The notes under the pieces: model-generated
What the model was told of the DNA's origin: nothing
Seen by the model: only the letters and a program-made list of their open reading frames with translations
Database searches by the model: none
IMG/VR virus record: IMGVR_UViG_3300025617_000909
Coordinates: 347-64,346 of that record
Origin: a virus
Lineage: Duplodnaviria > Caudoviricetes
Direction: 5' to 3' (one strand)
Length of the DNA stretch: 64,000 nt
Program-made: the position numbers and the translations under genes
Part shown: positions 33,293-55,060 of the stretch, piece after piece
Layout: each line of letters begins with the position of its first letter
How positions within the stretch are numbered: position 1 is the first letter of the stretch

Positions 33293-33326
33293 GATTTAGG
33301 GCTCCTAAAAAATCTAACTATGAATA

Positions 33327-33355
33327 ATTGTACGATATTTTTATATATATGTCAA
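33327..33355 (-). promoter_or_regulatory. sigma70-type early promoter
   Basis: TTGACA-N17-TACAAT. Confidence 0.75.
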
Positions 33356-33376
33356 GAGCTAACTATAAATATTTTT

Positions 33377-34942
33377 ATGAATAAATCACTCAAAATAGTA
33401 ATCGTCGGCGGAGGATCCGCAGGATGGTTAACTGCCGGATGGTTAAGCGTCTTTCAAAAAGATTGTGAAATCGAAGTAATAGAATCTGATACAATATCCA
33501 CAATAGGTGTAGGTGAAAGTGTTACACCTCACGTTGATTTATTTTTATCAGACATGGGAATTGATAGACATCATTGGATGAGAACCACAAATAGTGTTTA
33601 TAAATTAGCAAATAAATTTACTAATTGGGTTAGTAATTCGGGAGAAACTGAATATTTTAGTTTTAATTACACGTTACCTGCTGACAGTTTATATCAAGAT
33701 ATTACAAAATATTTTAATAAGACTCAATTATCTGAAAGTATTGATTTAAGAAATACAGATATTTTGTATTCTCTAATTAAAAATAATAAATTAGAAAAAT
33801 TTGACAAGTATTTTAATCCGCAGTACTGTTATATGGAAAACAATACTTGTCATATAAAAGATCAAATTAATTGTTTAAATCAATTAGGTTCAATTAGTCA
33901 ACATATCAACGCCGAACAATTAGGAACATATATCAAAGATCACATTGCTATTCCTAACGGTGTAAAGTCTACCATAGCAACAATTAAAAAAGTAATAAGA
34001 GTTCCAGGAAACATACAATTAGTTAATCATTTAGTAACTGAAAAGGATGAGTTGATTGCTGGAGATCTTTTTATAGATTGTTCAGGATTCAAAAGAGTTT
34101 TAATGAACTCTTATCCTTTAGAAGTACACAAATACAAAGATCATCCTATCAACAGTAGTATAGTTGCGCAAACTGAATATCAAGATCCTACCAACGAATT
34201 AGTTAACTATACACAAAGTATTGCTAGAGAGAATGGGTGGCAGTTTAAAATTGGACTTTACAACAGAATGGGCAACGGCTATTGTTTCAGCGATGCTCAC
34301 GAAACTCAAGCAGATAAAAAATTTAGTTCGTTTGTAACTAATTTAAAAAACGAACCTAGACTGATAAAATGGACTCCAGAAAGACTTGTAGCACCTGGAA
34401 AAGAAAATGTAGCCGCTATTGGTTTGAGTTCTGGATTTGTAGAACCCTTAGAAGCCAATGCTCTTTATACAATTATTACTGGTATTAAATTGCTTGATAC
34501 AACTATTAACAAATACAAAATTACCAGCAGGTTTGATTGGTCTGATTACAATAAAAAACTTACACATACTATAGATGATATTGCTGATTTTCTAATAGTT
34601 CATTATACTCTTAGTCAAAGACAAGATACTGAATTTTGGAAAGATATGCGAGAGATTGGCAAGACCGACAATCACGAACAATTGATTAAAGACAAGTATT
34701 ATGATATACGAAACACAATGGGTTATGCGAGTCATAACCATACTATGTTTCCTGACTATATGTGGATACAATTAGCAACTCATTATAACATAGACATGGA
34801 TATTCAAGTTGATAATGAGTTGCTAGAGCTAGGACTACTAGAATTTAAACACAATTATAAAAAGCATTCACTAATTAGTAAAAGTACTTTAAATAATTAT
34901 GAATGGATTAACAAAGTAATTTTCGGATCTTCCGGTTCGTGA
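33377..34942 (+). CDS. Flavin-dependent tryptophan halogenase (PrnA-like)
   Basis: IVIVGGGSAGW, IGVGES, FIDCSGF, GWQFKIGL (WxWxIP variant), GFVEPLEA. Confidence 0.88.
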   Translation: MNKSLKIVIVGGGSAGWLTAGWLSVFQKDCEIEVIESDTISTIGVGESVTPHVDLFLSDMGIDRHHWMRTTNSVYKLANKFTNWVSNSGETEYFSFNYTLPADSLYQDITKYFNKTQLSESIDLRNTDILYSLIKNNKLEKFDKYFNPQYCYMENNTCHIKDQINCLNQLGSISQHINAEQLGTYIKDHIAIPNGVKSTIATIKKVIRVPGNIQLVNHLVTEKDELIAGDLFIDCSGFKRVLMNSYPLEVHKYKDHPINSSIVAQTEYQDPTNELVNYTQSIARENGWQFKIGLYNRMGNGYCFSDAHETQADKKFSSFVTNLKNEPRLIKWTPERLVAPGKENVAAIGLSSGFVEPLEANALYTIITGIKLLDTTINKYKITSRFDWSDYNKKLTHTIDDIADFLIVHYTLSQRQDTEFWKDMREIGKTDNHEQLIKDKYYDIRNTMGYASHNHTMFPDYMWIQLATHYNIDMDIQVDNELLELGLLEFKHNYKKHSLISKSTLNNYEWINKVIFGSSGS

Positions 34943-37736: not shown

Positions 37737-38118
37737 CGTGGCACAATGCTTCTACTGTTTTATAATGTTCGTATGCTTTACGAAGGGCTTCAAATTTTTC
37801 TAGTTTATCTGGATCTGGTTGTAGAATAGCCAAACGCTTTTCCATTGTGTCCATGAATGTTTTTAAACTACGATTTCCAATCTTAACATCGCCCTTGTCA
37901 TTGATATTAAGATCACCTTCGGCAATGGTAATACCGCTATCAAAGTCATTAATAGTATCGAAGGTAAATGATGTAGGATATGTATCCGTTGTAGTATATG
38001 TAGTGGCATAACTGCCAGTGGAATCAATAGTTCCACCGACAGTCAATCCATCGATGCTACCAGCTACATGATAGTCTGGTATGTTAATCGTGTAAGTCTT
38101 GGTATCATCGTTTTCCAT
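37705..38118 (-). CDS. Hypothetical phage protein
   Basis: RLAILQPD...LRKAYEHYK C-terminus; operon packing. Confidence 0.65.
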   Translation of the reverse strand: MENDDTKTYTINIPDYHVAGSIDGLTVGGTIDSTGSYATTYTTTDTYPTSFTFDTINDFDSGITIAEGDLNINDKGDVKIGNRSLKTFMDTMEKRLAILQPDPDKLEKFEALRKAYEHYKTVEALCHDDVEDDKTAN

Positions 38119-38120
38119 AA

Positions 38121-38312
38121 TTAGGCCTTGGCTTCTTTACGTGAGTTTTTTTCTTCGGTAATCTCTGCTCTGCGTGTTTTTGCGAGCTTGGTTACTTCTT
38201 GAAGAGCCTTACGAGCTCTTGTACCAGCGGCTGCATTACCGCTGTCGAACTTTTCGTTTTCAGCTAAGAATGCTTCAAACTGTTCTCTGATTTGTTCTAC
38301 TGTCTGTGACAT
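38121..38312 (-). CDS. Histone H1-like (Hc1-type) small basic protein
   Basis: GNAAAGTRARKALQEVTKLAKTRRAEI. Confidence 0.7.
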   Translation of the reverse strand: MSQTVEQIREQFEAFLAENEKFDSGNAAAGTRARKALQEVTKLAKTRRAEITEEKNSRKEAKA

Positions 38313-38356
38313 GTTTTTTCCTCTTTATTAAAGTTATAATACTTATGACTGTATTA

Positions 38357-38471
38357 TGGTGCGGCTGGTAGGATTCGAACCTACAAAGGACAATCTGACT
38401 ACGTCATATCCCCATCCCCTTTCTAGCCTATGGGACTAGCGGGAGGTCTGCCATGTTCCACTCACAGCCAC
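38357..38471 (-). ncRNA. Oversized (115 nt) tRNA-like RNA with encoded CCA
   Basis: Acceptor GUGGCUG/CAGCCGC-A-CCA; T arm GUAGG-UUCGAAU-CCUAC; Leu-like D region; extended anticodon and variable arms. Confidence 0.7.
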
Positions 38472-38477
38472 TTTCAT

Positions 38478-38506
38478 AGTATAGCACAAGTTATATTTAA
38501 GATCAA
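38478..38506 (-). promoter_or_regulatory. sigma70 promoter of the tRNA-like RNA
   Basis: TTGATC-N17-TATACT with extended TG; RNA 5' end 6 nt downstream. Confidence 0.7.
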
Positions 38507-38522
38507 GTCTTTTTTATCCATT

Positions 38523-38957
38523 CTAATTCCGACGCATATTAGCAATTTCTTTGGCTTGATCTGTCCCTCGCATTACAGGAACTGCGTTACTTTTGTGCAT
38601 AGTAGCAATTCCTACAATTAGATCACCTGTGTATTTTACAGGTTCTTTCTTAGTCGCGACACCACCGACACCATTACCTAGACTTGGAATATTCGGTGTT
38701 TCTCTTCGATACCCATAGTCTGGAACAAACGGCTTTGTATCTACTGTTTTTTTACGTGGCTTGTATTCCCCGCGAATATAAGAAATGTAATCTTCAAAAT
38801 TTTTAAATTGTAAATCATGTAAATGTTTACGTCGCATACTTTTATTATGCTGTCTCCATTGTACTTCTAATTCTTGGAGACGTTTTTGTGTTAGTTTTTT
38901 ATGCTTAGGTTTTTTGGTATTAATTGTAGATAAACCCTGGGCCAAGTGCATAGTCAT
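38523..38957 (-). CDS. Conserved phage hypothetical protein
   Basis: C-terminal GIATMHKSNAVPV motif; AGGAG SD. Confidence 0.7.
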   Translation of the reverse strand: MTMHLAQGLSTINTKKPKHKKLTQKRLQELEVQWRQHNKSMRRKHLHDLQFKNFEDYISYIRGEYKPRKKTVDTKPFVPDYGYRRETPNIPSLGNGVGGVATKKEPVKYTGDLIVGIATMHKSNAVPVMRGTDQAKEIANMRRN

Positions 38958-38989
38958 AAAAATACTCCTGAGTAGTTACTAACATAATA

Positions 38990-39018
38990 ACTATACAGGA
39001 GTATTAGTGGTTTGTCAA
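38990..39018 (-). promoter_or_regulatory. sigma70 promoter with an inverted repeat complementary to the SD
   Basis: TTGACA-N17-TATAGT; AATACTCCTG/CAGGAGTATT 10-bp inverted repeat. Confidence 0.7.
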
Positions 39019-39034
39019 CGTTTAATTTGCCAAA

Positions 39035-39643
39035 TTAGGCGTCAGCAAGTTCCTTGATAAATTCAAAAGTTTCTTGCTTGGTATCATTATCTATTAGACA
39101 ACTGATACAATTTTCCGGTGATGTTTCACCGTAAGGATCGCTGTCTTTGCCTTCATCATTAATGCCAGGCTCTTCAAACCAATTTTCAATAACACCGTCA
39201 TTGACGATCATAGCATAACGCCACGAACGCATACCAAACCCTAAATGCGACTTGTCAATCAACATCCCCATTCTGCGGGTAAAGTTACCAGAACCGTCTG
39301 GAATAAATTTAATATTTTTAATCTCTTGATCGATCATCCACTTGCGCATAACAAAGGTGTCGTTAACAGAAATAACATAAACTTCATCAATGCCAAGCTC
39401 TTTGATCTTTTCATAGTTTTCTTCGAAACCCGGAACTTGATAAGTCGAGCAAGTTGGTGTAAATGCTCCTGGTAGGGAGAATACTAAAACTCGCTTGCCT
39501 TTAAAAATGTCATCAGTTGTAACATCTTTCCATTCAAATGGATTTTCGCTACCGTTTGTTTTGTCAACATAGGTAATAGGTTGTCCGTCAGTACGAACAC
39601 GATATTTAAAGGTAACCGATGGTACCTTAGCGCCTTTAATCAT
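39035..39643 (-). CDS. Peroxiredoxin (Prx5/redoxin family)
   Basis: LPGAFTPTCS, SVNDTFVM, GMRSWRYAMIV. Confidence 0.92.
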   Translation of the reverse strand: MIKGAKVPSVTFKYRVRTDGQPITYVDKTNGSENPFEWKDVTTDDIFKGKRVLVFSLPGAFTPTCSTYQVPGFEENYEKIKELGIDEVYVISVNDTFVMRKWMIDQEIKNIKFIPDGSGNFTRRMGMLIDKSHLGFGMRSWRYAMIVNDGVIENWFEEPGINDEGKDSDPYGETSPENCISCLIDNDTKQETFEFIKELADA

Positions 39644-39847
39644 AAACTTTCTCCGATTGTGTAAAATAGAACTGAATGTTCTCTGCGTTGTAGTTAGTAT
39701 TTACAATATAAAATTACTATAAAACCGACTTTTTCCATTTTATTTTTCTATGATAAACATAGAAAATTTAAATTAAGTGGGCCGTCTATCTTTTACAGGC
39801 GGACGACCCAAACGCTCTGTTGTAGTATCTTTCGCGATACTACGGTT

Positions 39848-39924
39848 TGGCCTGCCCTAGAGGATTCGAACCTCTGACCCACAGCTTAGAAGGCTGTTGC
39901 TCTATCCGGCTGAGCTAAGGGCAG
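39848..39924 (-). tRNA. tRNA-Arg(UCU)
   Basis: Cloverleaf, anticodon loop CUUCUAA, CCA end. Confidence 0.93.
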
Positions 39925-39929
39925 ATGCT

Positions 39930-40139
39930 TTACTGTAGAGTTATTACACCCTCCACAGTTTGTTTTTTAGCAGTAATAAAATCAAATATATAATCCATTG
40001 CTGCACTAATTTCTTCTAACGTCATCCAGTCTTGGTTATCTAAGATACCCTGAATAATATCTTGAATTTCTTCTTCACTTAGTTCTTGTCGTAACGGGTG
40101 TATGCCTTCTTTAAAAGGATCAATGTATTGTAGTGTCAT
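39930..40139 (-). CDS. Hypothetical protein
   Basis: Operon packing. Confidence 0.55.
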   Translation of the reverse strand: MTLQYIDPFKEGIHPLRQELSEEEIQDIIQGILDNQDWMTLEEISAAMDYIFDFITAKKQTVEGVITLQ

Positions 40140-40142
40140 GAT

Positions 40143-40496
40143 TTAAACCAGCTCTAAAAGTCCAACTATATAAATTATTGTAAGGCCTAAGTTCAAAACA
40201 AGCAAGCTCTTTTCTTTCCAAAGGAAGCCTACTGCTACCCAAATTCCATTAGCAACAGTAAACGCATAATGGTGTAGGTTACCAGGAAGGCCGAAAAACA
40301 TTTTTACTTCAGGAACAAAACTAGCCATCATAGCGGCAATAATGAGAATAACTGTTCCGGCCCATGCTAATCGTTGATACGGTTTTGTATCAGCATCGAC
40401 TGCTTCATCTTTTAGTTCGTATTCATACACACTATTGTAACCTTCTGCTGAACGCATACGATCGATGATGTCTAGTTCTTTCTCTGTAGTTGCCAT
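40143..40496 (-). CDS. Hypothetical membrane protein (3 TM)
   Basis: Hydrophobic C-terminal helices. Confidence 0.65.
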   Translation of the reverse strand: MATTEKELDIIDRMRSAEGYNSVYEYELKDEAVDADTKPYQRLAWAGTVILIIAAMMASFVPEVKMFFGLPGNLHHYAFTVANGIWVAVGFLWKEKSLLVLNLGLTIIYIVGLLELV

Positions 40497-41077
40497 TATA
40501 GGATGCCTGCCTCTGTTAGGATTTTAACAACTTCTTCGCTGAGAGGAATTTCAGTTTTAACATTTAATTCAAGAATTTCGTCAGCATACTTTTGCTTTTG
40601 CTTTTGAATTGAACGAACTTCATCTTTAAAACTTTTAATTTCTGCTCGACTTACAACACCAGTAGTAACTTCGTCCTCTGAGTATCGACCGAAGCCGTCA
40701 GACTTGGATTCTTGATTTTTAATTTTATTAAGTTTGCCCTCTAGAATCTTTAGATCTACAGTCTCTTTAGCTCGGGTTAGATCTCCAAGTTGCTGTAGGC
40801 GTTTTTCTGCTAGAGCTGATTGCGTTAGCAACAAGTCAATACCAGAGTTATGATTCGCGGCCGAAACTAGTCCGCGAATATTATACAGAGCAGTTAACAA
40901 GATTGCTCGTTTACGGTCATTATTCAAAAGCTCTACATTAGCATTTTTAATTTCGATTTCAGGATCCTGAAATTCGTTAATGCTGATAGTGGTCTTCATC
41001 TCAACTTCTTTGATTGCTTCGATGATAGAATTTTGAATTGCGTTTGCTTTGCGTAAATTAATATTCATTTTCTTCAT
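40496..41077 (-). CDS. Hypothetical coiled-coil protein
   Basis: 193 aa helical ORF overlapping rpoZ. Confidence 0.7.
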   Translation of the reverse strand: MKKMNINLRKANAIQNSIIEAIKEVEMKTTISINEFQDPEIEIKNANVELLNNDRKRAILLTALYNIRGLVSAANHNSGIDLLLTQSALAEKRLQQLGDLTRAKETVDLKILEGKLNKIKNQESKSDGFGRYSEDEVTTGVVSRAEIKSFKDEVRSIQKQKQKYADEILELNVKTEIPLSEEVVKILTEAGIL

Positions 41078-41312
41078 TGCCTTCTAAAAAATCTTTAGTA
41101 ATACCGTTGATATCATTGTAATAATCTTCTTCGGTGTACTTGCCTTCTTCAATTTCTCTAATTGCTATCACACCTGGTTTATTATCTTTTGGATCAACTC
41201 GAGGTGTCGCACCATGTGATAATTGTCTAGCTCTGTACGATGCTACTTTGATGAGCAAGAATTGATTGCCCCCTAATGCTTCTATTGCTTTTTGAGATGT
41301 AATTCTTGCCAT
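41058..41312 (-). CDS. rpoZ: RNA polymerase omega subunit
   Basis: MARITSQKA...NQFLLIKVASYRARQL...KPGVIAIREIEEG. Confidence 0.85.
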   Translation of the reverse strand: MARITSQKAIEALGGNQFLLIKVASYRARQLSHGATPRVDPKDNKPGVIAIREIEEGKYTEEDYYNDINGITKDFLEGNEENEY

Positions 41313-41418
41313 AATAATCCTTCCTGTTAACGGTTCCACAAAAGGTCAAGTAATAAGCCAAACAAATGACACTATACAAACTTCAAATCACAACGGACAA
41401 AAAGTTTGCTTTTACCCG

Positions 41419-41555
41419 ACCAGCAAAGAACAAAGTTTCTAAAGCCGGATCACGCAACCATTTCATGAGCTTTTCAAGAGCTTATGTACTGGAGTTATTC
41501 GACATAAAGTCTGAACAACGATTGCCTATCCTCGTCTACCTTCTGCTTCGCCGGT
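41419..41555 (-). ncRNA. Candidate rod-shaped structured RNA upstream of rpoZ
   Basis: Closing stem ACCGGCGAAG/CUUUGCUGGU; inner stems GGAU/AUCC and GCAAUCGUU/AAUGGUUGC. Confidence 0.45.
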
Positions 41556-41588
41556 TAAGTTAAACACAATGTCTAACTCAACAAACTA

Positions 41589-41616
41589 ATAATAACATCT
41601 TACAGCGTTTTGTCAA
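41589..41616 (-). promoter_or_regulatory. sigma70-type promoter
   Basis: TTGACA-N16-TATTAT with extended TG. Confidence 0.6.
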
Positions 41617-41974
41617 CACCTTCTTTATCCAAAATAGAAACTTTTTCTACTCTGTCGTAACGGAAACTGCGGAAACCTTTGCTTTCTAATGCCCAGACTG
41701 CTACCACCTTATCAGAGAGTTCGCGAACTTTCTTTTGGGTGATTGGTTCATCCTTTTTAGCAGGTGGTAGATACTCTGGAACAAGTGTACAAGGCATTAC
41801 ACGCTTCTCACCGTTTAGTTTGGTAAAGGTTACTTCAACTACGTTTTCCTTGAGCATTGTCATTAGGTTTTCCTTTGTTGGAATCCCCTTCATCTCTGCG
41901 ATTTTTGTTTCCAAAGATTCTGTCCCATCCGTCTTCGTATGCTTTTGTGTCTGATTGTTTTCTTGATTTGTCAC
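41600..41974 (-). CDS. SH3-like beta-barrel (WYL_2/DUF2693-like) protein
   Basis: VTFTKLNGEKRVMPCTL...VWALESKGFRSFR; GGAGG SD, GTG start. Confidence 0.7.
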   Translation of the reverse strand: MTNQENNQTQKHTKTDGTESLETKIAEMKGIPTKENLMTMLKENVVEVTFTKLNGEKRVMPCTLVPEYLPPAKKDEPITQKKVRELSDKVVAVWALESKGFRSFRYDRVEKVSILDKEGVDKTL

Positions 41975-42010
41975 CTTTACCTCCGTGCCATTGGTTGCTC
42001 ATAAAATTCC

Positions 42011-43126
42011 TTATAAAACTTTAAAAGTTTTTATTACATTTTCCATTTCGTCGTCAGTGATATCATAAAACGGCAAATGCCAAAGATAGTCCCAACTGTG
42101 AAACATATTGTTATATTGTAAATGATTTCTTATGGTTTTGTCAAGATCTTTTGAGTATAAAAGTGTACCAATTGCAGTAGCTCTATGTCCTTTTTGAGAA
42201 AGTATAGTTCTAAGCTGGCGCACATATGGTATGATCTTTTCGTTGATTCTATTTAATGACTGTTGTTCTTTGATTAGATCAATAGTGGCACATGCCGCTA
42301 CTGCTCCTAGTGTATTTGTACTTCTAGAATTTCCCAAAGGTAACCATTCATCTTTTATCACATTGTTTACTTTGCTGTCTATCAGCGTAACAGAAAGATT
42401 CTCATGACCGGATGTTAGTGCTTTGCCTAGCGTTATCATATTAGGCTTTAGTCCAAGACTATGACTGTGTAGCCAATGGCCCATTCTTCCTAGTCCTGTT
42501 AATATCTCATCAACAATTAACAGCAATTGGTATTTGTCTACTGTGTGTTGTAATGCTTGCCAATATTCATTAGTGTCGTTGTGTAATCCATTGACCCACG
42601 GAACTGTGTCTACAAGAACAGCCGCAATGTTATCACACCCTAGTTGATGGATTGTTGTTTCGAGATCATCGAAAAATTCTACAAACTCTATTTGCGGAAA
42701 AATAGATTTATCAAAATGATGATTCATTTGCCAGCCGGTAATGCTTCCGCTATGAAAACTTTTCTTACGGACAAGAATATATTTTTTATCCTTTCCGTGA
42801 TACATCCATGCTAGTTTAATTGCGTTGTCAACACTATCGCTACCACTCAACGCTCCTATATAACTGGAATATTTGTTGTCTGTAATTTCGTCAAGTTTGT
42901 TTCCAAGCTCATCCCAAACATTGTTGTTTAGTCGCCAGAACCCTGTATTTGATGTTAGAGCCGCTTGAGATATTTTTTGTGTGATAATAGGATTAGCATA
43001 ACCAAAGATATTTGTGCCAGCACTAGCATGAAGATCAAACATTCCATCAATGTAATGACCTTTACATTCTGTGAAGGTGTAGGAGTTGTCTGATTTATTT
43101 GTATCGAAGGAGTTTAGACGCTTCAT
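42011..43126 (-). CDS. Class III PLP-dependent aminotransferase
   Basis: SGSDSVDNAIK, SFHSG, LLIVDEILTGLGRMG, LGKALTSG. Confidence 0.88.
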   Translation of the reverse strand: MKRLNSFDTNKSDNSYTFTECKGHYIDGMFDLHASAGTNIFGYANPIITQKISQAALTSNTGFWRLNNNVWDELGNKLDEITDNKYSSYIGALSGSDSVDNAIKLAWMYHGKDKKYILVRKKSFHSGSITGWQMNHHFDKSIFPQIEFVEFFDDLETTIHQLGCDNIAAVLVDTVPWVNGLHNDTNEYWQALQHTVDKYQLLLIVDEILTGLGRMGHWLHSHSLGLKPNMITLGKALTSGHENLSVTLIDSKVNNVIKDEWLPLGNSRSTNTLGAVAACATIDLIKEQQSLNRINEKIIPYVRQLRTILSQKGHRATAIGTLLYSKDLDKTIRNHLQYNNMFHSWDYLWHLPFYDITDDEMENVIKTFKVL

Positions 43127-44130
43127 ACAACACTTCGTATCTTTCCTTCACGCTTGGTATCAAGTGTGAAACAGTGTGCTCCGCTTTCCCATAATAGTCC
43201 GTGTCTAGTAGTTGTTGATAACACTTCAATGTTATTTTGTTCAAGTACTCTTTGTACTCCAGAATGTGGATTTGTTAATAATACCTTTCTCGGTGCTAGT
43301 ACTAGCACGTTAGTATCAAAACATTCATCAATGCTATGGCTTCTCCATCCGCCGAACCATTTGGATAACATTCCGTCTGTGTAAATTCCGCCAGTGTCGC
43401 TGATGTCTTTACTCCATTGTTTGAAATCAATTAATTTCATGTGTTCATAAAGTTCTATAATTTTTTTATTTTGTAGTTGTTGAGGAACAAAATCTTTTTG
43501 GTATGCTACTACAGTATCATCATCAACCATAAACCACAACATATCAATATGTCCAAACCCGTCGACTGGTAGTAACTTTGTACCTATAGGAATGTTTCTT
43601 TTCATCCAATCGTAACCAAGTTTTGATCCAGGACCTCTGCTGTTGTACAAAAGTGAATTTCCGACCTTTGTCATACTAGCCATATGGGTTAGTATTTTAT
43701 CTTTGTATATGTCTGCATAAATAGTTTCGCCTTTGCCGTACCATGTTTCATTCTGATCTAATCTGTTAAGTTTAGCAGAAGGTTGCTCATACCAGTTGTA
43801 ACCTTGTTCGAACATACTACGGAAAATATCATAGTAAGCAAGATGCTCTGTTTCTCTTCCGGGAACACTCATCTTACCTGTGTAAATGTTGTCCATGTAT
43901 ACAAGAAGATTGTCTCTTGGACGTATAGGTTGAGCCTTATATCCATCAACTTGAGATGCGTCAGGACGTAAAACTTTAATACCTTGTTGTTTGAGAATGT
44001 CTGCTAGTTTGTCTAAGTCTTCTTTTGTTTCCTCAAAGACTTGTTGTAGCATAGAACTATTCTTTTCGACGGCTGGATCACAATCGCCTACAATTATTTC
44101 TTCTAATGGATCCCACTCAGTACATATCAT
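43123..44130 (-). CDS. Amidinotransferase (glycine/inosamine amidinotransferase family)
   Basis: EWDPLEEIIVG, RPRD, GHID, GAHCFTLD. Confidence 0.85.
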   Translation of the reverse strand: MICTEWDPLEEIIVGDCDPAVEKNSSMLQQVFEETKEDLDKLADILKQQGIKVLRPDASQVDGYKAQPIRPRDNLLVYMDNIYTGKMSVPGRETEHLAYYDIFRSMFEQGYNWYEQPSAKLNRLDQNETWYGKGETIYADIYKDKILTHMASMTKVGNSLLYNSRGPGSKLGYDWMKRNIPIGTKLLPVDGFGHIDMLWFMVDDDTVVAYQKDFVPQQLQNKKIIELYEHMKLIDFKQWSKDISDTGGIYTDGMLSKWFGGWRSHSIDECFDTNVLVLAPRKVLLTNPHSGVQRVLEQNNIEVLSTTTRHGLLWESGAHCFTLDTKREGKIRSVV

Positions 44131-44150
44131 ACTGTTATTTATTTGTAAAA

Positions 44151-44223
44151 TGGAGCGGCATCCCGGATTCGAACCGAGTTCATTTGCTTGGAAGGCAAAG
44201 TCCTCTCCCAGGAGAAATGCCGC
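44151..44223 (-). tRNA. tRNA-Gly(UCC), short D arm
   Basis: Anticodon loop CUUCCAA, U73, CCA. Confidence 0.85.
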
Positions 44224-44336
44224 TTAAAAAAATGTACTAACACAAAGAGTAGGTAAATTCCAATGTGTCGACCAAGCAAACACAGCTATGCTTGTGCTTC
44301 CTTCTTATCGCCGTCCCTTTCAGGCTAGTACTAACT

Positions 44337-44428
44337 TGGCGGTGAGACTGGGATTCGAACCCAGGGTACCCATTTCTAGGTACGACAAGTTAGCAACCTG
44401 CTGCCTTAAGCCACTCGGCCACCTCACC
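44337..44428 (-). tRNA. tRNA-Ser(GCU)
   Basis: Anticodon loop UUGCUAA, long variable arm, G73-CCA. Confidence 0.93.
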
Positions 44429-44437
44429 AAAAAATAG

Positions 44438-44929
44438 TTACTTGTTAAATTTTAATGTGTATTCTTTGTTGTTGTTCCAAAATGTTACAGTACTATGACT
44501 GTATACTTCTTTGGTTTTTTCTTTATAACGTGTTTCTTTTGAACACACTGTTTCTGTAGTGTAACCTTGTGGACCTTTGTCTTTGTTTCCACCGATGATA
44601 GCACCGGTCAAAGCACCAACACCTGTTGTCGCTTCTTTGCCACTGCCTTTACCAAATTGGTTGCCAATAACACCGCCGATGATACCGCCGATGATAGCTC
44701 CCTCTTGATCAAACTCTTTCTTTTGTCCGTAAGGTACTTTTACGTCTTTACATACTTCTACAATATATGGTTCCTGCTTGATCACAATTTTGTAATGATC
44801 TTCTACAACTCCCATAACATTGTTGTTAACTTGAACTTTATCAGCATGTGCTACACCTGAGAACGCAACTAGAAAACTTGCGCCGCAAGCGATTGTTAGT
44901 GTATGAAAATATAGTTCTTTAAAGGTCAT
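44438..44929 (-). CDS. Glycine-zipper 2TM domain secreted protein
   Basis: Signal peptide; GAIIGGIIGGVIGNQFGKGSGKEATTGVGALTGAIIG. Confidence 0.8.
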   Translation of the reverse strand: MTFKELYFHTLTIACGASFLVAFSGVAHADKVQVNNNVMGVVEDHYKIVIKQEPYIVEVCKDVKVPYGQKKEFDQEGAIIGGIIGGVIGNQFGKGSGKEATTGVGALTGAIIGGNKDKGPQGYTTETVCSKETRYKEKTKEVYSHSTVTFWNNNKEYTLKFNK

Positions 44930-44958
44930 TGCCTTTTTTCCTTTTCTGTTTCTGTTTC

Positions 44959-45034
44959 TGGTGCCGGCACCAAGAATCGAACTCGGGACCTTTGCATTAC
45001 AAGTGCACTGCTCTACCTGCTGAGCTATGCCGGC
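44959..45034 (-). tRNA. tRNA-Thr(UGU)
   Basis: Anticodon loop CUUGUAA, CCA. Confidence 0.93.
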
Positions 45035-45059
45035 ATAATTTTATTTACATTGTCTGTTT

Positions 45060-45088
45060 ATATTACAACATAAAACAGAGTATGTCAA
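45060..45088 (-). promoter_or_regulatory. Internal sigma70 promoter upstream of tRNA-Thr
   Basis: TTGACA-N17-TAATAT. Confidence 0.6.
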
Positions 45089-45097
45089 CCTAAAAAA

Positions 45098-45173
45098 TGG
45101 TGCGCCCGGTAGGATTCGAACCTACGATCTGCCCATTATGAGTGGGTAGCTTTAACCTCTAAGCTACAGGCGC
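45098..45173 (-). tRNA. tRNA with CAU anticodon, probably Ile2 (lysidine-modified, reads AUA)
   Basis: Loop CUCAUAA; paired 1-72 and no GGG/CCC anticodon stem, so not an initiator. Ile2 versus elongator Met is an inference. Confidence 0.8.
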
Positions 45174-45179
45174 TATGTT

Positions 45180-45256
45180 TGGAGTGGATGATGGGAGTCG
45201 AACCCACATGAAACGGATTTGCAATCCGCGGCCTAACCATTCGGCGACACATCCAC
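45180..45256 (-). tRNA. tRNA-Cys(GCA)
   Basis: Loop UUGCAAA, U73, CCA. Confidence 0.9.
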
Positions 45257-45261
45257 ATAAC

Positions 45262-45339
45262 TGGTCGGGGATGTAGGATTCGAACCTACGGCTTTTCCGC
45301 CCCAAACGGAACACTCTGACCAGACTGAGCTAATCCCCG
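45262..45339 (-). tRNA. tRNA-Pro(UGG)
   Basis: Loop UUUGGGG, C1-G72, A73, CCA. Confidence 0.93.
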
Positions 45340-45343
45340 TAAT

Positions 45344-45419
45344 TGGCACCGGTGGAAGGAATCGAACCTCCGCTGTCGTGGTTTTGGAGACCACCGCTCT
45401 ACCCCTGAGCTACACCGGC
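45344..45419 (-). tRNA. tRNA-Trp(CCA)
   Basis: Loop CUCCAAA, G73, CCA. Confidence 0.92.
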
Positions 45420-45429
45420 AAAACTAAAT

Positions 45430-45441
45430 TGTCAAAGAGCA
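45430..45441 (-). promoter_or_regulatory. boxA Nus-factor antitermination element
   Basis: TGCTCTTTGACA versus rrn boxA TGCTCTTTAACA; 10 nt before tRNA-Trp. Confidence 0.7.
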
Positions 45442-45473
45442 ATAAAAAACCCCGGAGTGTTTAGTTCCGGGGT
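45441..45473 (-). terminator. Intrinsic terminator of the tRNA-operon attenuator
   Basis: ACCCCGGA-ACUAAACAC-UCCGGGGU followed by UUUUUAUU. Confidence 0.88.
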
Positions 45474-45515
45474 CTTTCGTAAAATTTGTAAATAATTACA
45501 ACATCACGTAGACCC
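45470..45515 (-). promoter_or_regulatory. Antiterminator hairpin
   Basis: GGGUCU/AGACCC, CGUGA/UUACG, UUGUAA/UUACAA; shares ACCC with the terminator 5' arm. Confidence 0.75.
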
Positions 45516-45584
45516 GCAGAAACATCCACACCATCTTGGTGTACTTGGTATTACTATAAATGTGTTTGCGTTTCTATTCATCAT
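45504..45584 (-). CDS. Leaderless attenuator leader peptide MMNRNANTFIVIPSTPRWCGCFCGST (26 aa)
   Basis: ATG 6 nt after the -10 box; codons match the downstream tRNA anticodons; stop codon lies inside the antiterminator 5' arm. Confidence 0.75.
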   Translation of the reverse strand: MMNRNANTFIVIPSTPRWCGCFCGST

Positions 45585-45590
45585 GTTGTT

Positions 45591-45619
45591 AGTATATGTT
45601 CGTTGTTATCTATTGTCAA
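45591..45619 (-). promoter_or_regulatory. Strong sigma70 promoter of the tRNA operon
   Basis: TTGACA-N17-TATACT. Confidence 0.85.
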
Positions 45620-46065
45620 CCGTTATTTTCTTCCAAACTGTCAAAAACTTCTTGACGTCTTGAAGGTCTAACCATATTTAAGGAAGCACGGGTAACTTCT
45701 GTTATCTTATTGGCGTCTCTAGTATCAACGGCTGTACCTCCGTGTGAGATATTAAATGTCCAGCCTTTATCAGCTAGAATTGCTTGTAATTCAATTGCGG
45801 CCCAATTTGTTGTATATGCTTCATTCATGTACTTCATATCTTCAGCTGTTTCATGATAGAACACGTATCTGTGAGTCTTACTAATGTTATCAAAAGCAGT
45901 ATAAGACTTGGCTGAAGCATGACCATCAAGTATCATGTCCATCCTTAAATAGTCAAGTTCTTTGATAACATCGTCTGGTACAACGGTTGCAAAGAATTGT
46001 TCATATCCAGAAGTATCATGGATGTCTGTATCTGGATTACGAATTGTAATTATTGTAGTAAACAT
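45616..46065 (-). CDS. Hypothetical protein
   Basis: ATAAATA and GAGG SD upstream. Confidence 0.65.
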   Translation of the reverse strand: MFTTIITIRNPDTDIHDTSGYEQFFATVVPDDVIKELDYLRMDMILDGHASAKSYTAFDNISKTHRYVFYHETAEDMKYMNEAYTTNWAAIELQAILADKGWTFNISHGGTAVDTRDANKITEVTRASLNMVRPSRRQEVFDSLEENNG

Positions 46066-46080
46066 AGTATTCCTCTCAAA

Positions 46081-46650
46081 TTATTTATCTAAGATATATT
46101 CGAACTCTTTCATAGGCTTCATTATTGAATCAAAAACATCTACGTTTAGTTTCCAAAAATGTTGTTCATGGCCTCTGTATGTAGCAATAGTTTCTAATTG
46201 TATTGTATTGTTACTTACTAGCGCAGGCGCCCATACATTATGAACAGCTCTTTGAGTTCCGACTTCACTAGGGTGTGTACTTATATAGAAATTTTTATCT
46301 CGTCCATAATGATCAATCGTTACCGGTATAAAAATCTGTCCTGTGATATGGTGCTGATCAGCAATTTCTTTTCTTGTCCTAATGCTAGTTAATGGCATGA
46401 GATCTGTAAAAGCGCAAATTCTAGTACATATTCTGTATCCAGGTAAAAAGTCTAATTTGTGTGCGGCAAAACTAGCCACTGGAAGATTGTTATAGTAAAC
46501 AATCCATACCATCATTTCTTCTTCATTACTAAGACTTTGAACTAACATTTTTTCAGTAGCATTGTTTACAAATCCTCTCTTTTTAGATTCTTCATAAAAG
46601 AAAGTTAAATCTAATTCAGGTGTCCAAGGTTTAACTATAAATTTTGCCAT
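46081..46650 (-). CDS. Hypothetical protein, possible GNAT-like fold
   Basis: WIVYYNNLPVASFAAH...YRICTRIC beta pattern. Confidence 0.45.
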   Translation of the reverse strand: MAKFIVKPWTPELDLTFFYEESKKRGFVNNATEKMLVQSLSNEEEMMVWIVYYNNLPVASFAAHKLDFLPGYRICTRICAFTDLMPLTSIRTRKEIADQHHITGQIFIPVTIDHYGRDKNFYISTHPSEVGTQRAVHNVWAPALVSNNTIQLETIATYRGHEQHFWKLNVDVFDSIMKPMKEFEYILDK

Positions 46651-47344
46651 TTAAATCTTCTTTAAATTTTCCTTCGATTTTTATAGTAAGCGAAGTATGT
46701 GTACTAGGATGTAGATTACCGTGCCAATCATAATGATTAAAGTAAACAGCATGGCCGTCAACAGGGTATGTTGCTAGTATGTTGCCGCTATCGGATATAT
46801 CGTAAACGTAAAAAGGCCTAGTTTTTCTAAACCTAAACCATATTAGATTTTTATCCTCGGCTGGTGGCTCTGGGTGATCACCTTGCTCAATTGGCCAATA
46901 GTTATAATCTCTATGATAACCTTGAGGCATATATTTTTCATTGTAAAATAAACTCACAGTATCTGTATACTCAAATGGAAGACTGTCAAACACGTCTTTT
47001 ATGTGTTGCGGAACAAAATCTTTGTATCCATTTGTGTCTTTGAGATGTAAAATTCTATAAGGATCGAAACTATCATACTTTAATTTCAAGTATGTTGCTA
47101 ATTTTGACGGGTCGTCTTGTGGATAATCATATTCCATTCTGTGCTTATGATAATACAATGTTCTATGATCTCTAAGATATTGCCAATTTGTATCCATTGG
47201 TATACTACCACTAGTCCATGTTGAGTTGGACAAGTGTTGATTATCAGCATATAGTTTATACAATTCGCTTTCTGCGTCTAGCAGTGTTGAAATGTCTAAA
47301 TAACTATCTAAGTTAATGAATGGATTATTGTTTATTCCCAGCAT
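46631..47344 (-). CDS. 2OG-Fe(II)/cupin-type oxygenase-like protein
   Basis: YHRD...DWHG...IKIEG; paralog of 55060-55866. Confidence 0.6.
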   Translation of the reverse strand: MLGINNNPFINLDSYLDISTLLDAESELYKLYADNQHLSNSTWTSGSIPMDTNWQYLRDHRTLYYHKHRMEYDYPQDDPSKLATYLKLKYDSFDPYRILHLKDTNGYKDFVPQHIKDVFDSLPFEYTDTVSLFYNEKYMPQGYHRDYNYWPIEQGDHPEPPAEDKNLIWFRFRKTRPFYVYDISDSGNILATYPVDGHAVYFNHYDWHGNLHPSTHTSLTIKIEGKFKEDLNGKIYS

Positions 47345-47357
47345 CAAGGATATTTAT

Positions 47358-48071
47358 ATGTCATTGGTAACACCAAGTAAGATAAGTGAAAATTTTTTTA
47401 CAAGCGGGTTCCCTCCAATTTATAAAATTGCCAAACATCATCCTCCAAATAAAGTTACTAACAAGTGGTTAAGTATTGATGATACTGGAGAAATTGATTA
47501 TTATTTTAATAGTTTAGGATACAGGGACTATGAATTTAACGGTAGAGAAAATAATTCAATATGGTGTTTGGGTCATAGCGATACAGCAGGAGTTGGCGTT
47601 TCTGTAAAAAGTATATGGCCATCGGTATTAAAAGAATTGTCAGGTATAGACTGTTTAAATCTTGGAGTAGCAGGAGCAGGTTGGGATACTATAACTAGAA
47701 TTGCTATTTCGGGTCTTAGAAAATATACTCCAAAAGCAATAGTAGTTATTGAACCGCCAGAAGCAAGAAGAGAATATGTACATCAACACAACTCTCAATT
47801 TGTGTTACCAAGTTTGCCTAACTCAATGATGCCTTATAAAGATTTTTACAAAGTTCGGGACCACATGAGCGATATGTACAATGTTGAAAGAAATTATTAT
47901 TCGTTAAAAAATGCTTGCGATGCTAAGTCAGTTGCGTTATATGTACTTGACTTTCCCGAAAGAAATAATTTAAAAAAGATAGACAAGTCAGCAGAAGGTA
48001 CGCATATCGGACCTAACACTCATCGTCAATTAGCAGAGGATATTTTTAATTGTTTAGATTTGAAGAATTAA
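47358..48071 (+). CDS. SGNH/GDSL-like hydrolase
   Basis: LGHSDTAGVG, NLGVAGAG, GTHIGP. Confidence 0.6.
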   Translation: MSLVTPSKISENFFTSGFPPIYKIAKHHPPNKVTNKWLSIDDTGEIDYYFNSLGYRDYEFNGRENNSIWCLGHSDTAGVGVSVKSIWPSVLKELSGIDCLNLGVAGAGWDTITRIAISGLRKYTPKAIVVIEPPEARREYVHQHNSQFVLPSLPNSMMPYKDFYKVRDHMSDMYNVERNYYSLKNACDAKSVALYVLDFPERNNLKKIDKSAEGTHIGPNTHRQLAEDIFNCLDLKN

Positions 48072-52727: not shown

Positions 52728-53678
52728 AATGTGTGTCTCTGGTTGACACCAACAACAATCTCTTTGACAAGTTAGAGTTTTAACAACTGGATTAAATTCT
52801 TTTATAAAGTTAGTATCGTAAATGTTATAGGGTTTATCAAATAAGCCTTGTCCACAACTTCCTTGTAATACTCCATCCCAATGAATGTAGATATTTTCTT
52901 TTTCAATATCGCACTTCCAGCCCTTGAATGTATTGTAGTTTAAATTGTGATAGGTATAGTTTACTTTTTTAGTTTTGCCATTTTCAAATTCAACTACACT
53001 CCCATAGGGTTTTAGATTCTTCCAATTTTTTAAAAACCATCCTATACCTGGCAGGGCTTTTAAATCATTTTTCATATACTTCTTTTGTTCTTCTGTATAC
53101 GTTACTGGAAATGTTTCGATTGGAAATACAGGACGTGATTCTATAAACCATTTGCGCTTTCTATTCTTCTTCATATAGTTTATACTATCTACGCACTTGT
53201 CAAACTCATTTGGATCCATTAGAACCAAGCAGTGTACATCAACACCCTTGGATACTACTAAATCCACTACATTTATAAAATGATCAATGTCTGCTTGTTT
53301 GTGATGAAAACTAAAAACTACTTTGCTGAACTGTTTGGCGTACTTATTCCACCAACGAAGTGTTCTACTGCCATTGGTGATCAGTTTCATATCAATGTCG
53401 TATAACTTGTTTATTGTTGTTACAAACATACCAAGTTCTGGCCATAGAGTCGGTTCGCCGCCACTTAGTTCTAGTTCAAAACGTTTTTTGCCTTGCTTAC
53501 TATAAGTCTCTAATAGTTTATAAAAGTTATTATGAATCATGCCTACATTCTTAGGATAAGCATAATCTCCTTTATTAGACTCGCAGTACGCACACTTAAA
53601 GTTACAGACGTTGCCTACACACCATCTTATTTTAAGTAAGTCGTCTGAATCTAGTGATGTTATCTTTATTGGTTTCAT
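52710..53678 (-). CDS. Radical SAM protein
   Basis: CNFKCAYC, SGGEPT, CQRDCCWC. Confidence 0.9.
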   Translation of the reverse strand: MKPIKITSLDSDDLLKIRWCVGNVCNFKCAYCESNKGDYAYPKNVGMIHNNFYKLLETYSKQGKKRFELELSGGEPTLWPELGMFVTTINKLYDIDMKLITNGSRTLRWWNKYAKQFSKVVFSFHHKQADIDHFINVVDLVVSKGVDVHCLVLMDPNEFDKCVDSINYMKKNRKRKWFIESRPVFPIETFPVTYTEEQKKYMKNDLKALPGIGWFLKNWKNLKPYGSVVEFENGKTKKVNYTYHNLNYNTFKGWKCDIEKENIYIHWDGVLQGSCGQGLFDKPYNIYDTNFIKEFNPVVKTLTCQRDCCWCQPETHISKSLS

Positions 53679-55060
53679 AACAAATGTGCTAGTTCAGGAA
53701 ACACTGCTTTGAAGTCCAAGCCTCGAACTTTATCCATTCGTTGAATATATTCTTTAAACGCTGGAAGTAGTTTGGTATGATCGTCACCGTCCATGAAGTC
53801 TAGCACTGCTTGCCAACGTTTCCAACCATAAGGATTGTGTTTCCAGAAGTCTTCGTCTTGTCTATAGTTCTCATGTAACCAGTTAGCAAGTTTGGCAAAG
53901 TTTTCTCGTACTTCTTGCTTGTCCTTTTCTGGTAAACACTTAATGCTTAAATAGGTTGGAATATACAGCAAGTGCATATTAACTATGCCACCTCCGGCTT
54001 GAACTCCACCGATGTTATTCTCGAAGTTAATCTTCTTGAATCCTTGCTGTATCTTCCATTTGGCAAGTTCAGGCAAGTGTTTGATGTTTAGTATTTGAAT
54101 TGCTGTTGCTAGACTAACTTGAATATTCGAAGGAGTGTTGTCTAATAAATGTAGATTGGAAACTAAAAGATCCCAATCAGTAGGATAACGAATGTAATGA
54201 TTACGTTCGCCAACAGCATCAATACTAACAGCAAATTTAACTCGCCTAAACTTTTTCCAAAGCTCAATAATTTCTTCATCAACTAATAAACCATTAGAAT
54301 TATATCTAACTAGAATTTTATCAGCATATCCTTGCCGGATAATTTCCTCTAGAAATAACTTGTGTTCTTTGATCATTAGAGGCTCGCCTCCAGCAAAGTA
54401 CACTTGTTTTAAATTAGGTATCTGTGCGTATATGTCTTTCCAGAATTCTGGATTTTCATGCCAGAAGTTATTAAACTCCTTGCGTCCCCAATTCATTTGA
54501 TTTTTTAGTTCTTGGTGTTGGAACTGAGGATATACTTTTTTGTGATCTGCGACCCATTGACTACTATCATGCGGGCTACACATAATACATTTCAAATTAC
54601 ATGTATGTCCTAACCGCAAGTCTAGGTAGTATAAGTTTTCAGGAACGGTTCCATCTTCAGCAGTTTGTTCCAGCAATTCTTTAAAGTCGATATCTTCTTC
54701 ATTCCAAGTACCAGCTTCCCATAGTCGCTTACTTACAACACCCTTTGATTCCTCATCAAAGCATTTTTGACAACTAGCAGGAATGTTACCTTCAAGAATT
54801 GTTTTTCTAACAGATCGCATGTATTCGTTGTTCCATGCCTCCATCGGAGTTTCCTTGCCAAAGTTAGCCGGCCTACCTGTTTCGTTTTTTACTAATCCTA
54901 TTTCATGATCAGTACCTGCGCCGCTAGAGTTAGCATTACAGCATAGACGCATATCACCGTTGGGTCTTGTGGCTAAATGTATCCATGGCAAAACACAGAA
55001 GGTGGGTGTTCCTGTTGCTTCTGTTAATTGCTTTTGATATTCTTTTATCTTATCGCTCAT
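53675..55060 (-). CDS. Radical SAM protein with N-terminal twitch/SPASM domain
   Basis: FCVLPW...LCC...CQKC; CNLKCIMC; AGGEP. Confidence 0.9.
   Translation of the reverse strand: MSDKIKEYQKQLTEATGTPTFCVLPWIHLATRPNGDMRLCCNANSSGAGTDHEIGLVKNETGRPANFGKETPMEAWNNEYMRSVRKTILEGNIPASCQKCFDEESKGVVSKRLWEAGTWNEEDIDFKELLEQTAEDGTVPENLYYLDLRLGHTCNLKCIMCSPHDSSQWVADHKKVYPQFQHQELKNQMNWGRKEFNNFWHENPEFWKDIYAQIPNLKQVYFAGGEPLMIKEHKLFLEEIIRQGYADKILVRYNSNGLLVDEEIIELWKKFRRVKFAVSIDAVGERNHYIRYPTDWDLLVSNLHLLDNTPSNIQVSLATAIQILNIKHLPELAKWKIQQGFKKINFENNIGGVQAGGGIVNMHLLYIPTYLSIKCLPEKDKQEVRENFAKLANWLHENYRQDEDFWKHNPYGWKRWQAVLDFMDGDDHTKLLPAFKEYIQRMDKVRGLDFKAVFPELAHLL

Follow-up and report, generated by a model that had tools for sequence, protein, structure and literature searches.

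A probable ribosome-mediated transcription attenuator ahead of a tRNA gene array in a large uncultured marine phage

The 64,000-nucleotide stretch analysed here (the window; positions 347 to 64,346 of the IMG/VR virus record IMGVR_UViG_3300025617_000909, i.e. nearly all of this 64.3-kb record, whose CheckV completeness is 17%) carries, on its minus strand between 45619 and 45429, a short leader preceding an array of tRNA genes. We read this leader as a ribosome-mediated (leader-peptide) transcription attenuator, through which tRNA supply would feed back on the expression of the phage's own tRNA genes, and we give this reading a probability of about 0.78. It is built on the anatomy of the sequence, on its conservation in a family of related loci, on the co-variation of leader codons with the anticodons of the adjacent array, and on predicted alternative folds whose geometry matches that of a translating ribosome; from these features we infer that the leader is translated, that read-through into the array is regulated, and in which direction.

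A description made beforehand from the sequence alone (the preliminary description) had proposed, in this order, a promoter, a short open reading frame (ORF) starting 6 nt after the −10 element, a hairpin having the last codons and the stop of this ORF as its 5′ arm and terminator bases in its 3′ arm, a GC-rich terminator with a U tract, a boxA, and the tRNA genes Trp, Pro, Cys and CAU; each of these elements is present where it had been placed. The promoter, of the sigma-70 type (45591–45619, minus strand), consists of TTGACA (45619–45614) and TATACT (45596–45591) separated by 17 nt; with 11 of 12 consensus matches, it is the top site in a scan of 43000–48000, and its −35 element overlaps the stop codon of an upstream 149-amino-acid ORF (45616–46065). 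The leader ORF (45504–45584, minus strand; MMNRNANTFIVIPSTPRWCGCFCGST) comprises 26 codons followed by a TGA stop codon (45506–45504). Its ATG (45584) sits 6 nt past the −10 element and is not preceded by a Shine–Dalgarno (SD) sequence; judging from this spacing, transcription would start near the ATG and the ORF is possibly translated as a leaderless mRNA. The last six codons and the stop form the 5′ arm (45520–45504) of the predicted antiterminator hairpin (45466–45520, minus strand), which further comprises an inner hairpin (45501–45486) and a 3′ arm (45482–45466) that sequesters the 5′ half of the terminator, AGACCCCGGA. Folded without the terminator 3′ arm (45520–45455), this structure has a free energy of −22.2 kcal/mol (z = −6.0), and none of 200 shuffled sequences was equally stable. 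The intrinsic terminator (45441–45477, minus strand) is made of the stem GACCCCGGA/TCCGGGGTT (45474–45448), a 9-nt loop and a U tract; a simple terminator scanner missed it because of the 9-base loop. Its stem of 9–12 pairs, extendable by A:U pairs and 12 pairs long in the minimum free energy (MFE) structure, prevails when the whole leader is folded. In the MFE structure of the window leader, codons 3–8 also pair with codons 21–25, a helix that might correspond to the upstream protector or pause helix (regions 1:2) of the trp model.

Between the terminator and tRNA-Trp lies the 12-mer GCTCTTTGACAA (45429–45440, minus strand), which we take to be a boxA-like motif, presumably differing from the E. 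coli rrn motif at one position, and which may by analogy act in antitermination. An exact copy of this 12-mer occurs once in the whole window; among 394 loci, it is found at the same position ahead of the 24-tRNA array of locus L098, described below, and in two further matches (L186 and L226) that are intracoding. The array itself, called with the Rfam tRNA model, begins with tRNA-Trp(CCA) (45344–45419), tRNA-Pro(UGG) (45262–45339), tRNA-Cys(GCA) (45180–45256) and a tRNA with a CAU anticodon (45098–45173), all on the minus strand, and tRNAs Thr, Ser(GCU), Gly(UCC) and Arg(UCU) follow further on in the window. The CAU tRNA is probably Ile2: it matches the annotated T5 tRNA-Ile2 at 58/78 positions, versus 50/76 for Met and 52/78 for fMet, a comparison that is suggestive only; in the related family described below, CAU tRNAs are likewise associated with ATA codons. 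A second consensus-like promoter (TTGACA-N17-TAATAT, 45060–45088, minus strand) lies between the CAU tRNA and tRNA-Thr (44959–45034), and the Thr and later tRNAs, whose codons are still represented in the leader, may thus have their own entry point.

The codon content of the leader is markedly biased towards the tRNAs of the window. Taking the CAU tRNA as Ile2, i.e. as reading AUA, 16 of the 25 codons that follow the start are cognate to the eight window tRNAs, compared with 19.5% of codons in 50 long ORFs (binomial p = 1.5e-6). As had been stated in the preliminary description, each of the eight tRNAs has its codon in the leader (8/8; P = 5.6e-4 by simulation), and codons 12–21 form an unbroken run of ten cognate codons, provided that the CAU tRNA reads AUA. 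Among 17,106 real 25-codon windows, a single one contains all eight codon sets and none reaches 16 cognate codons.

A family of related elements was reached through a 163-amino-acid protein encoded downstream of the leader and array (44438–44929), which led to viral contigs where a Trp-Pro-Cys array follows an element of this kind whose sequence is not that of the window leader. A first search pattern (ORF end plus terminator 5′ arm) retrieved 109 viral stretches, and a second one, based on the inner hairpin only and leaving the G/C helix unspecified, at least 120 stretches, including at least 33 members outside the first set. Altogether, the family comprises at least 138 uncultured viral loci, with 70 unique leader/array pairs having untruncated arrays among the matches listed. 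The preliminary description had made its proposal depend on relatives keeping the ORF and the alternative pairing, and the family keeps both. Its layout is constant: a promoter (TTGACN-N16-18-TANNNT in 56/62 unique upstream regions), an SD-like motif (42/47), a short ORF of 17–24 codons starting with ATG or GTG, an antiterminator with the last codons of the ORF as its 5′ arm, a terminator, and an array starting with tRNA-Trp, located in most members 8–31 nt from the terminator. A UGG codon is present in all 62 unique leaders, and Trp is the first called tRNA in 60 of the 62 unique loci, the exceptions being one truncated locus and one ARAGORN miss. In cultured phages, the search for the family leader returned tRNA-Trp matches only, and not the leader; in the bacterial genome set, the family pattern gave four matches, none with a tRNA, which were set aside as chance hits. 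The window leader is probably a diverged homologue of this family rather than an independent case. Other routes to its close kin were negative: tblastn with the upstream 149-amino-acid protein and a viral-contig scan gave no close leader relative, the exact terminator pattern of the window matched 50 stretches, none of them followed by tRNA-Trp, and two metagenome patterns for the window leader had no match.

What is conserved at the end of the family ORFs is the RNA rather than the peptide. The codon preceding GGT is GGG, AGG, TGG or CGG (Gly, Arg or Trp), meaning that the run of G is fixed and the amino acid is not, and in a frameshifted variant (L355) the nucleotides of the RNA motif are kept while the peptide is changed. 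When the terminator 3′ arm is omitted, all 58 unique family segments are predicted to form the outer helix (R)GGGGU/AGCCCC(U) around the inner hairpin; when it is included, all 58 fold as the terminator, the inner hairpin persisting in both states. Compensatory changes in the stems, another check suggested in the preliminary description, are scarce: RNAalifold run on the family alignment returned the terminator with one covarying pair only (CG in 31 sequences, UA in 21, broken in 5), the helix showing no variation otherwise, and the antiterminator outer helix displays no double change. As a separate observation, 19 of the 109 loci retrieved with the first pattern (13 unique sequences; L361, L317, L339, L342, L353, L360, L370, L392, L394, L311, L160 and L216 among the loci) contain a structured insert of about 75–95 nt between the terminator and tRNA-Trp, in which a closing stem of 9–12 bp surrounds two or three hairpins with a cloverleaf-like look. 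One of the 13 inserts (L341) resembles an uncalled tRNA-Trp itself, and a gathering-threshold Rfam scan of four insert-bearing loci detected tRNAs only.

If the leader senses the supply of the tRNAs that it precedes, its codons should change with the array. The preliminary description had put this forward as a check, and the family bears it out: over the 70 unique leader/array pairs, 220 leader codons are matched by the adjacent array, versus 128.4 ± 8.7 after shuffling the arrays among the leaders, and none of 20,000 shuffles scored as high. Expressed as the mean number of cognate codons in the leader body with and without the corresponding tRNA, the values are 1.33 versus 0.70 for Cys (any Cys codon in 33/33 versus 23/37 leaders; Fisher, 3e-5), 3.20 versus 0.52 for ATA with Ile(UAU) (Mann–Whitney U test (MWU), 1e-7), 2.44 versus 0.67 for ATA with the CAU tRNA (MWU, 3e-5), 2.42 versus 0.91 for Ser(UGA) (MWU, 8e-4) and 2.86 versus 0.84 for Gln(UUG) (MWU, 7e-5); rarer tRNAs give 2.0 versus 0.54 for Tyr (n = 5), 1.0 versus 0.13 for Arg(ACG) (n = 3) and 1 versus 0.06 for His (n = 1). 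Synonymous codon choice follows the anticodon as well, ATA representing 49 of 55 Ile codons when the array includes the Ile(UAU) or CAU tRNA and 14 of 71 when it does not. This tracking does not reflect genome-wide codon usage, since the flanking long ORFs show no such shift: ATA rises from 3.5% to 21.1% in leaders with the presence of the tRNA, versus 1.9% and 2.1% in long ORFs of the same loci. More generally, array-cognate codons make up 26.8% of the family leaders and 7.0% of the long ORFs of the same locus, the leader value being higher in 63 of 63 loci. Individual comparisons illustrate the trend. The sister loci L349/L386 oppose ..IIGWPS.. with tRNA-Gly(UCC) and no tRNA-Cys to ..IICWPS.. 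with tRNA-Cys and no tRNA-Gly; in L406, CWPP has become CWRR (CGC CGC) ahead of a Trp-Arg(ACG)-Cys array devoid of tRNA-Pro; between L403 and L405, a Tyr codon has given way to a His codon where tRNA-His is in the array; and L199, L321, L375 and L412, which have tRNA-Tyr, carry Tyr codons on both sides of the UGG. As regards overall composition, the family leader bodies are nearly devoid of Ala, Glu, Asp, Met, His and Val (0.2–0.9% each), with an abundance of Thr (15.6%), Ile, Pro, Ser and Asn; some contigs (e.g. L002) have tRNAs for Thr and for Asn in other arrays, and the leader may hence also report on tRNAs encoded elsewhere.

Common descent was taken into account by counting independent pairs on a quick-method tree of the non-leader parts (57 rows), with the average number of pairs varying in the same way or the other way. 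The pairs nearly all varied as expected, the counts being 2.6/0.0 for Cys, 3.9/0.0 for Ile(UAU), 0.9/0.0 for Ser(UGA), 2.1/0.0 for Gln, 2.6/0.0 for the CAU tRNA with ATA, 1.0/0.0 for Gly and 2.2/0.9 for Pro; for Tyr, the visible pairings were (3,0,0) or (2,0,1). Considering these results together is a step of our own, in which pairs may share branches.

These data bear on two other explanations of the locus. The first is chance, i.e. that the tRNAs happen to be preceded by a commonplace terminator belonging to a short, spurious ORF. Short ORFs and hairpins are indeed common in AT-rich DNA, and terminators are not a usual feature of the approach to phage tRNAs: in the other phage tRNA loci sampled, a terminator was found within 80 nt of only 39 of the 584 tRNAs with at least 90 nt free upstream, about half of these cases being family members. 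The codon statistics of the window, the conservation over at least 138 loci and the absence of any equally high score in 20,000 shuffles make a coincidence hardly credible. According to the second explanation, the small ORF is a genuine gene in its own right, encoding for instance a Cys/Trp-rich modified peptide or a small toxin, with its own promoter and terminator, and the tRNAs are transcribed by constitutive partial read-through or from elsewhere. The good start signals of the family, the Cys-rich nature of the window peptide and the occurrence in the window of tryptophan-halogenase-like (33320–34942, plus strand; PHROG E-value 2.5e-92) and radical-SAM-like (53675–55060, minus strand) ORFs would suit such a gene. 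The latter ORFs lie 8–10 kb off, however, and nothing was found to connect them with the Trp codons of the leader; conservation does not concern the peptide sequence, as illustrated by the L355 frameshift and by the variable NGG codon; a peptide function does not predict that composition and synonymous choice should track the adjacent array; and, in most members, the 8–31 nt between the terminator and the tRNA leave no room for another promoter. We consider this possibility quite improbable.

The position of the codons relative to the two hairpins is that expected of an attenuator. A ribosome was simulated by masking a footprint that began 15 nt ahead of the first base of the A-site codon and ended 12 nt beyond it, the RNA being folded up to the terminator 3′ arm. 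In the window, all nine positions of the terminator 5′ arm are held by the antiterminator without a ribosome or with the A site anywhere up to the UGG (codon 18, 45533–45531); five of nine are held with the A site at codon 19, and zero to two from codon 21 to the stop. Codons 12–18 (ATA CCA AGT ACA CCA AGA TGG; 45531–45551, minus strand) thus delineate a predicted sensor zone. Family sequences behave alike: the antiterminator is predicted to be intact in 61/61 cases with the A site one codon before the UGG, 59/61 at the UGG, 31/61, 18/61 and 1/61 one, two and three codons after it, and 4/61 at the stop, as compared with 55/61 without a ribosome. The invariant Trp codon thus marks the last position at which the antiterminator survives a waiting ribosome. 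In these folding models, the UGG is located as expected if stalling leads to read-through and smooth translation to termination, in keeping with the polarity put forward in the preliminary description, in which stalling frees the antiterminator, while a ribosome that has reached the stop masks it.

We propose the following scenario. Transcription would start from the promoter and the leader would be translated while RNA polymerase proceeds, the nascent RNA forming the antiterminator first and thereby holding the 5′ half of the terminator. A ribosome running smoothly to the end of the leader would cover the 5′ arm of the antiterminator, letting the terminator form, and transcription would stop before tRNA-Trp. 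Should the ribosome wait at the UGG, or at one of the preceding codons that a phage tRNA decodes, because the charged tRNA is scarce, the antiterminator would stay in place and the array would be transcribed; the same outcome is expected if no ribosome loads. As the phage tRNAs accumulate, the leader would be read faster and the array would shut itself down. On an evolutionary timescale, the codon set of the leader would be rewritten as tRNAs join or leave the array, yielding a sensor for several tRNAs in which the UGG is the fixed key codon.

Two further loci, carried by unrelated contigs, have analogous leaders. In L031, a promoter-like region, which resembles what we take to be a Bacteroidota-type promoter, precedes a 25-codon ORF with three UGG codons (MKNLSSYSSSWSWSSKRDESGTVLW) and without an SD, a terminator and a lone tRNA-Trp (locus positions 215–288). 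By masked folding, its antiterminator would be intact through the second UGG (codon 13) and lost from codon 15, a UGG again being the boundary codon. L031 may represent an independent origin in a different host group. In L098, a consensus promoter and a 38-codon ORF lie about 300 nt upstream of tRNA-Gln (locus positions 9366–9439, minus strand), and the leader is followed by a terminator, by GCTCTTTGACAA and then by an array of 24 tRNAs. All 20 amino acids are present in this leader (P = 0.004), and its codons account for 21 of the array's 23 distinct anticodons, compared with a simulated mean of 15.2 (P = 8e-4); none of 2,291 real windows does so. Its predicted fold suggests a four-region layout (1:2, 2:3, 3:4), including a 1:2-like helix. 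Other loci with a terminator before a tRNA (L041, L044, L099, L134, L105, L043, L045 and L116) were discarded, as they displayed no clear codon match or plain gene-end terminators.

Several observations weigh against the attenuator reading or restrict it. Some concern conservation. The window leader has no close relative by megablast or blastn against phages. The antiterminator outer helix is devoid of double compensatory changes, the one variation being a tolerated G.U pair in L412/L419, where the shared strand reads CCTC, the terminator partner has become GAGG and the antiterminator partner accommodates the change through the G.U; furthermore, part of the conservation of this helix stems from the design of the searches. 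With a pattern specifying the terminator only, all 19 matches linked to a tRNA-Trp already had the G run. Others concern the codons, whose co-variation with the array is not absolute. The loci are related, and none of the per-tRNA independent-pair tests is significant alone because each includes fewer than six informative pairs. Arg(GCG) is matched in 0/4 cases, Lys, Ala and Ser(GCU) show nothing, family arrays with Gly(UCC) go with GGT codons, Cys codons are still found in the 23 of 37 leaders mentioned above whose arrays lack tRNA-Cys, and the leaders of Trp-only arrays still abound in codons for Thr, Ile, Pro and Cys. Nor does the number of Pro codons depend on tRNA-Pro (1.71 with versus 1.51 without).

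The behaviour of Pro codons is one of the points that would fit a TnaC-like nascent-peptide arrest, in which Trp together with Pro-Pro stalls the ribosome in answer to a small molecule (e.g. free tryptophan) or to the state of EF-P, and not to tRNA supply. Moreover, the spacing between the invariant Trp and the stop is constant, many family members have W-P-P, and Pro-Pro stalling reportedly affects attenuators. An arrest peptide should, however, be constrained in sequence, whereas the residues near the Trp vary freely (WPP, WCP, WYP, WPL, WPS, WRR), the window, L031 and L098 peptides have only W in common, and the variable positions follow the array; besides, the terminator is intrinsic and not Rho-dependent. 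We therefore hold such an arrest to be improbable, and tRNA supply remains our preferred signal.

A last set of objections concerns the direction and the timing of the response. When the transcript is folded in full, the MFE structure is invariably the terminator, so that antitermination must be kinetic, as in classical attenuators. In both L031 and L098, the antiterminator arm is no longer covered once the ribosome rests at the stop codon, which implies that details of the timing must differ there. Two marine metatranscriptome runs yielded contigs identical to the window at 44376–44986, 45132–45301, 45512–46092 and 45598–45855; being kept as contigs, they cannot reveal starts, ends or levels. 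One of them, covering parts of three adjacent tRNA genes and their spacers (45132–45301), is weak evidence that the array is transcribed. Another (46092 to 45512) passes from the upstream 149-amino-acid gene into the leader, ending 6 nt short of its stop codon: upstream transcripts may thus enter the leader and, in such transcripts, its SD-less ATG might go unused. The stability of the terminator on the full transcript, the unmasked antiterminator arm in L098 and L031, and this entry from upstream could also be reconciled with an opposite or different polarity, the terminator being mainly an insulator against upstream transcription and active translation of the leader, required to open the structure, giving read-through. 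Nevertheless, placing the ribosome at the stop abolishes the antiterminator and frees the terminator 5′ arm in the folding models of the window and of 57/61 family sequences, and the location of the UGG exactly at the boundary is what stall-dependent antitermination leads one to expect; a reversed polarity is accordingly given little weight, on a par with the arrest peptide.

The window has a G+C content of about 38% and encodes, in addition to the halogenase-like and radical-SAM-like proteins, baseplate/tail-fibre-like proteins. The cultured relatives of the 163-amino-acid protein are found only in the Methylophilales phage Melnitz (Kyanoviridae, 36.6% identity) and in a Roseobacter phage. 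The record itself, these relatives and the identical marine metatranscriptome pieces identify the window as part of a large uncultured marine phage. Melnitz was considered as a leader-bearing relative and rejected: it shares the 163-amino-acid neighbour, but tRNA-Arg stands alone at that site.

To our knowledge, little has been established about the timing and dosage of phage-encoded tRNAs, and the control of tRNA genes is generally placed at their promoters. If correct, the attenuator reading would reveal a new use of a textbook mechanism, in which tRNA supply is read via the ribosome and feeds back on tRNA genes; it would also provide a testable link between the carriage of tRNAs by phages and translational stress in the infected cell, including that caused by tRNA-targeting defences, and a compact example, taken from nature, of a sensor monitoring several tRNAs simultaneously, with a codon content evolving in step with the array. 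Several causes of tRNA loss can be envisaged, namely mismatched codon usage, host shut-off and anticodon nucleases deployed by the host in defence, and plain supply-and-demand feedback explains the data equally well as a trigger by an anticodon nuclease. The bolder idea of a programmable several-channel sensor of tRNA supply, in which every tRNA acquired by the array is entered in the leader as its cognate codon, in which the loss of any one tRNA triggers the whole replacement set, which acts both as a counter-defence trigger and as a homeostat, and which has arisen more than once (in the marine T4-like group, L031 and L098), is one that we entertain as a tentative and rather doubtful extension.

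The window element displays the features by which ribosome-mediated attenuators are defined structurally, namely a promoter-proximal ORF, an enrichment in relevant codons, an intrinsic terminator, a predicted mutually exclusive antiterminator and an appropriate placement of the codons. An Rfam search of 38000–48000 with E-values up to 1 revealed no T-box and no leader family other than a sub-threshold match to Thr_leader, which is full-length (45441–45563, minus strand) and scores 30.4 bits for a cut-off of 55 (E-value 0.017). Searches of the full-text literature turned up no account of tRNA genes, in phages or in bacteria, being controlled by leader-peptide attenuation; most subscription journals and the older T5 and T4 papers were not covered by these searches, which hence do not prove that none is in print. 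PMC3082878 was considered as a precedent and set aside, its one passage on a tRNA operon being unrelated.

Phage T5 shares with the window the succession of a promoter, a short ORF and tRNA genes: T5.070 (L427; T5 positions 34627–34755), for instance, is a 42-amino-acid ORF with five Cys codons which lies downstream of promoter P14b and ends 5 nt before tRNA-Cys. The T5 ORFs (27–66 amino acids) were rejected as instances of the same element, the gap of 5–20 nt before the tRNA holding neither a terminator nor an alternative hairpin; unlike the phage leader, they look like ordinary small proteins, codon tracking being judged by inspection, and T5.070 looks like a small zinc-ribbon protein. The 12-mer that immediately precedes the untranslated tRNAs of both the window array and the L098 array resembles what we take to be the arrangement of rrn-type boxA motifs, with the differences that the putative phage motif lies downstream of a terminator and is absent from most family members. 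T-box riboswitches, which bind uncharged tRNA directly, without a ribosome, and control synthetase or amino-acid genes, likewise attenuate transcription by reporting on a specific tRNA through codon–anticodon recognition; the phage element differs from them in having a translated ORF and no Rfam T-box match.

The closest parallels are with the attenuators of amino-acid operons (trp, his, thr, leu, ilv, pheA). The phage element has in common with these an ORF containing regulatory codons near the promoter, mutually exclusive antiterminator and terminator structures, and a placement such that stalling frees the antiterminator. It departs from them in being phage-borne and in controlling tRNA genes, so that the sensed molecule would be the product itself, in mixing codons of several amino acids, and in following isoacceptor anticodons (ATA versus ATT/ATC) rather than amino acids; unlike in the trp model, the predicted default without a ribosome is read-through, for a leader taken to have no conserved region-1 protector helix. 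The pheST (pheM) leader, an attenuator that controls a synthetase and senses the tRNA of a single amino acid, comes nearer still in one respect, as both elements use leader-peptide attenuation to adjust a component of the translation apparatus to the availability of charged tRNA. In the phage element, however, several tRNAs would be sensed, and the product would be the sensed tRNA, giving direct feedback.

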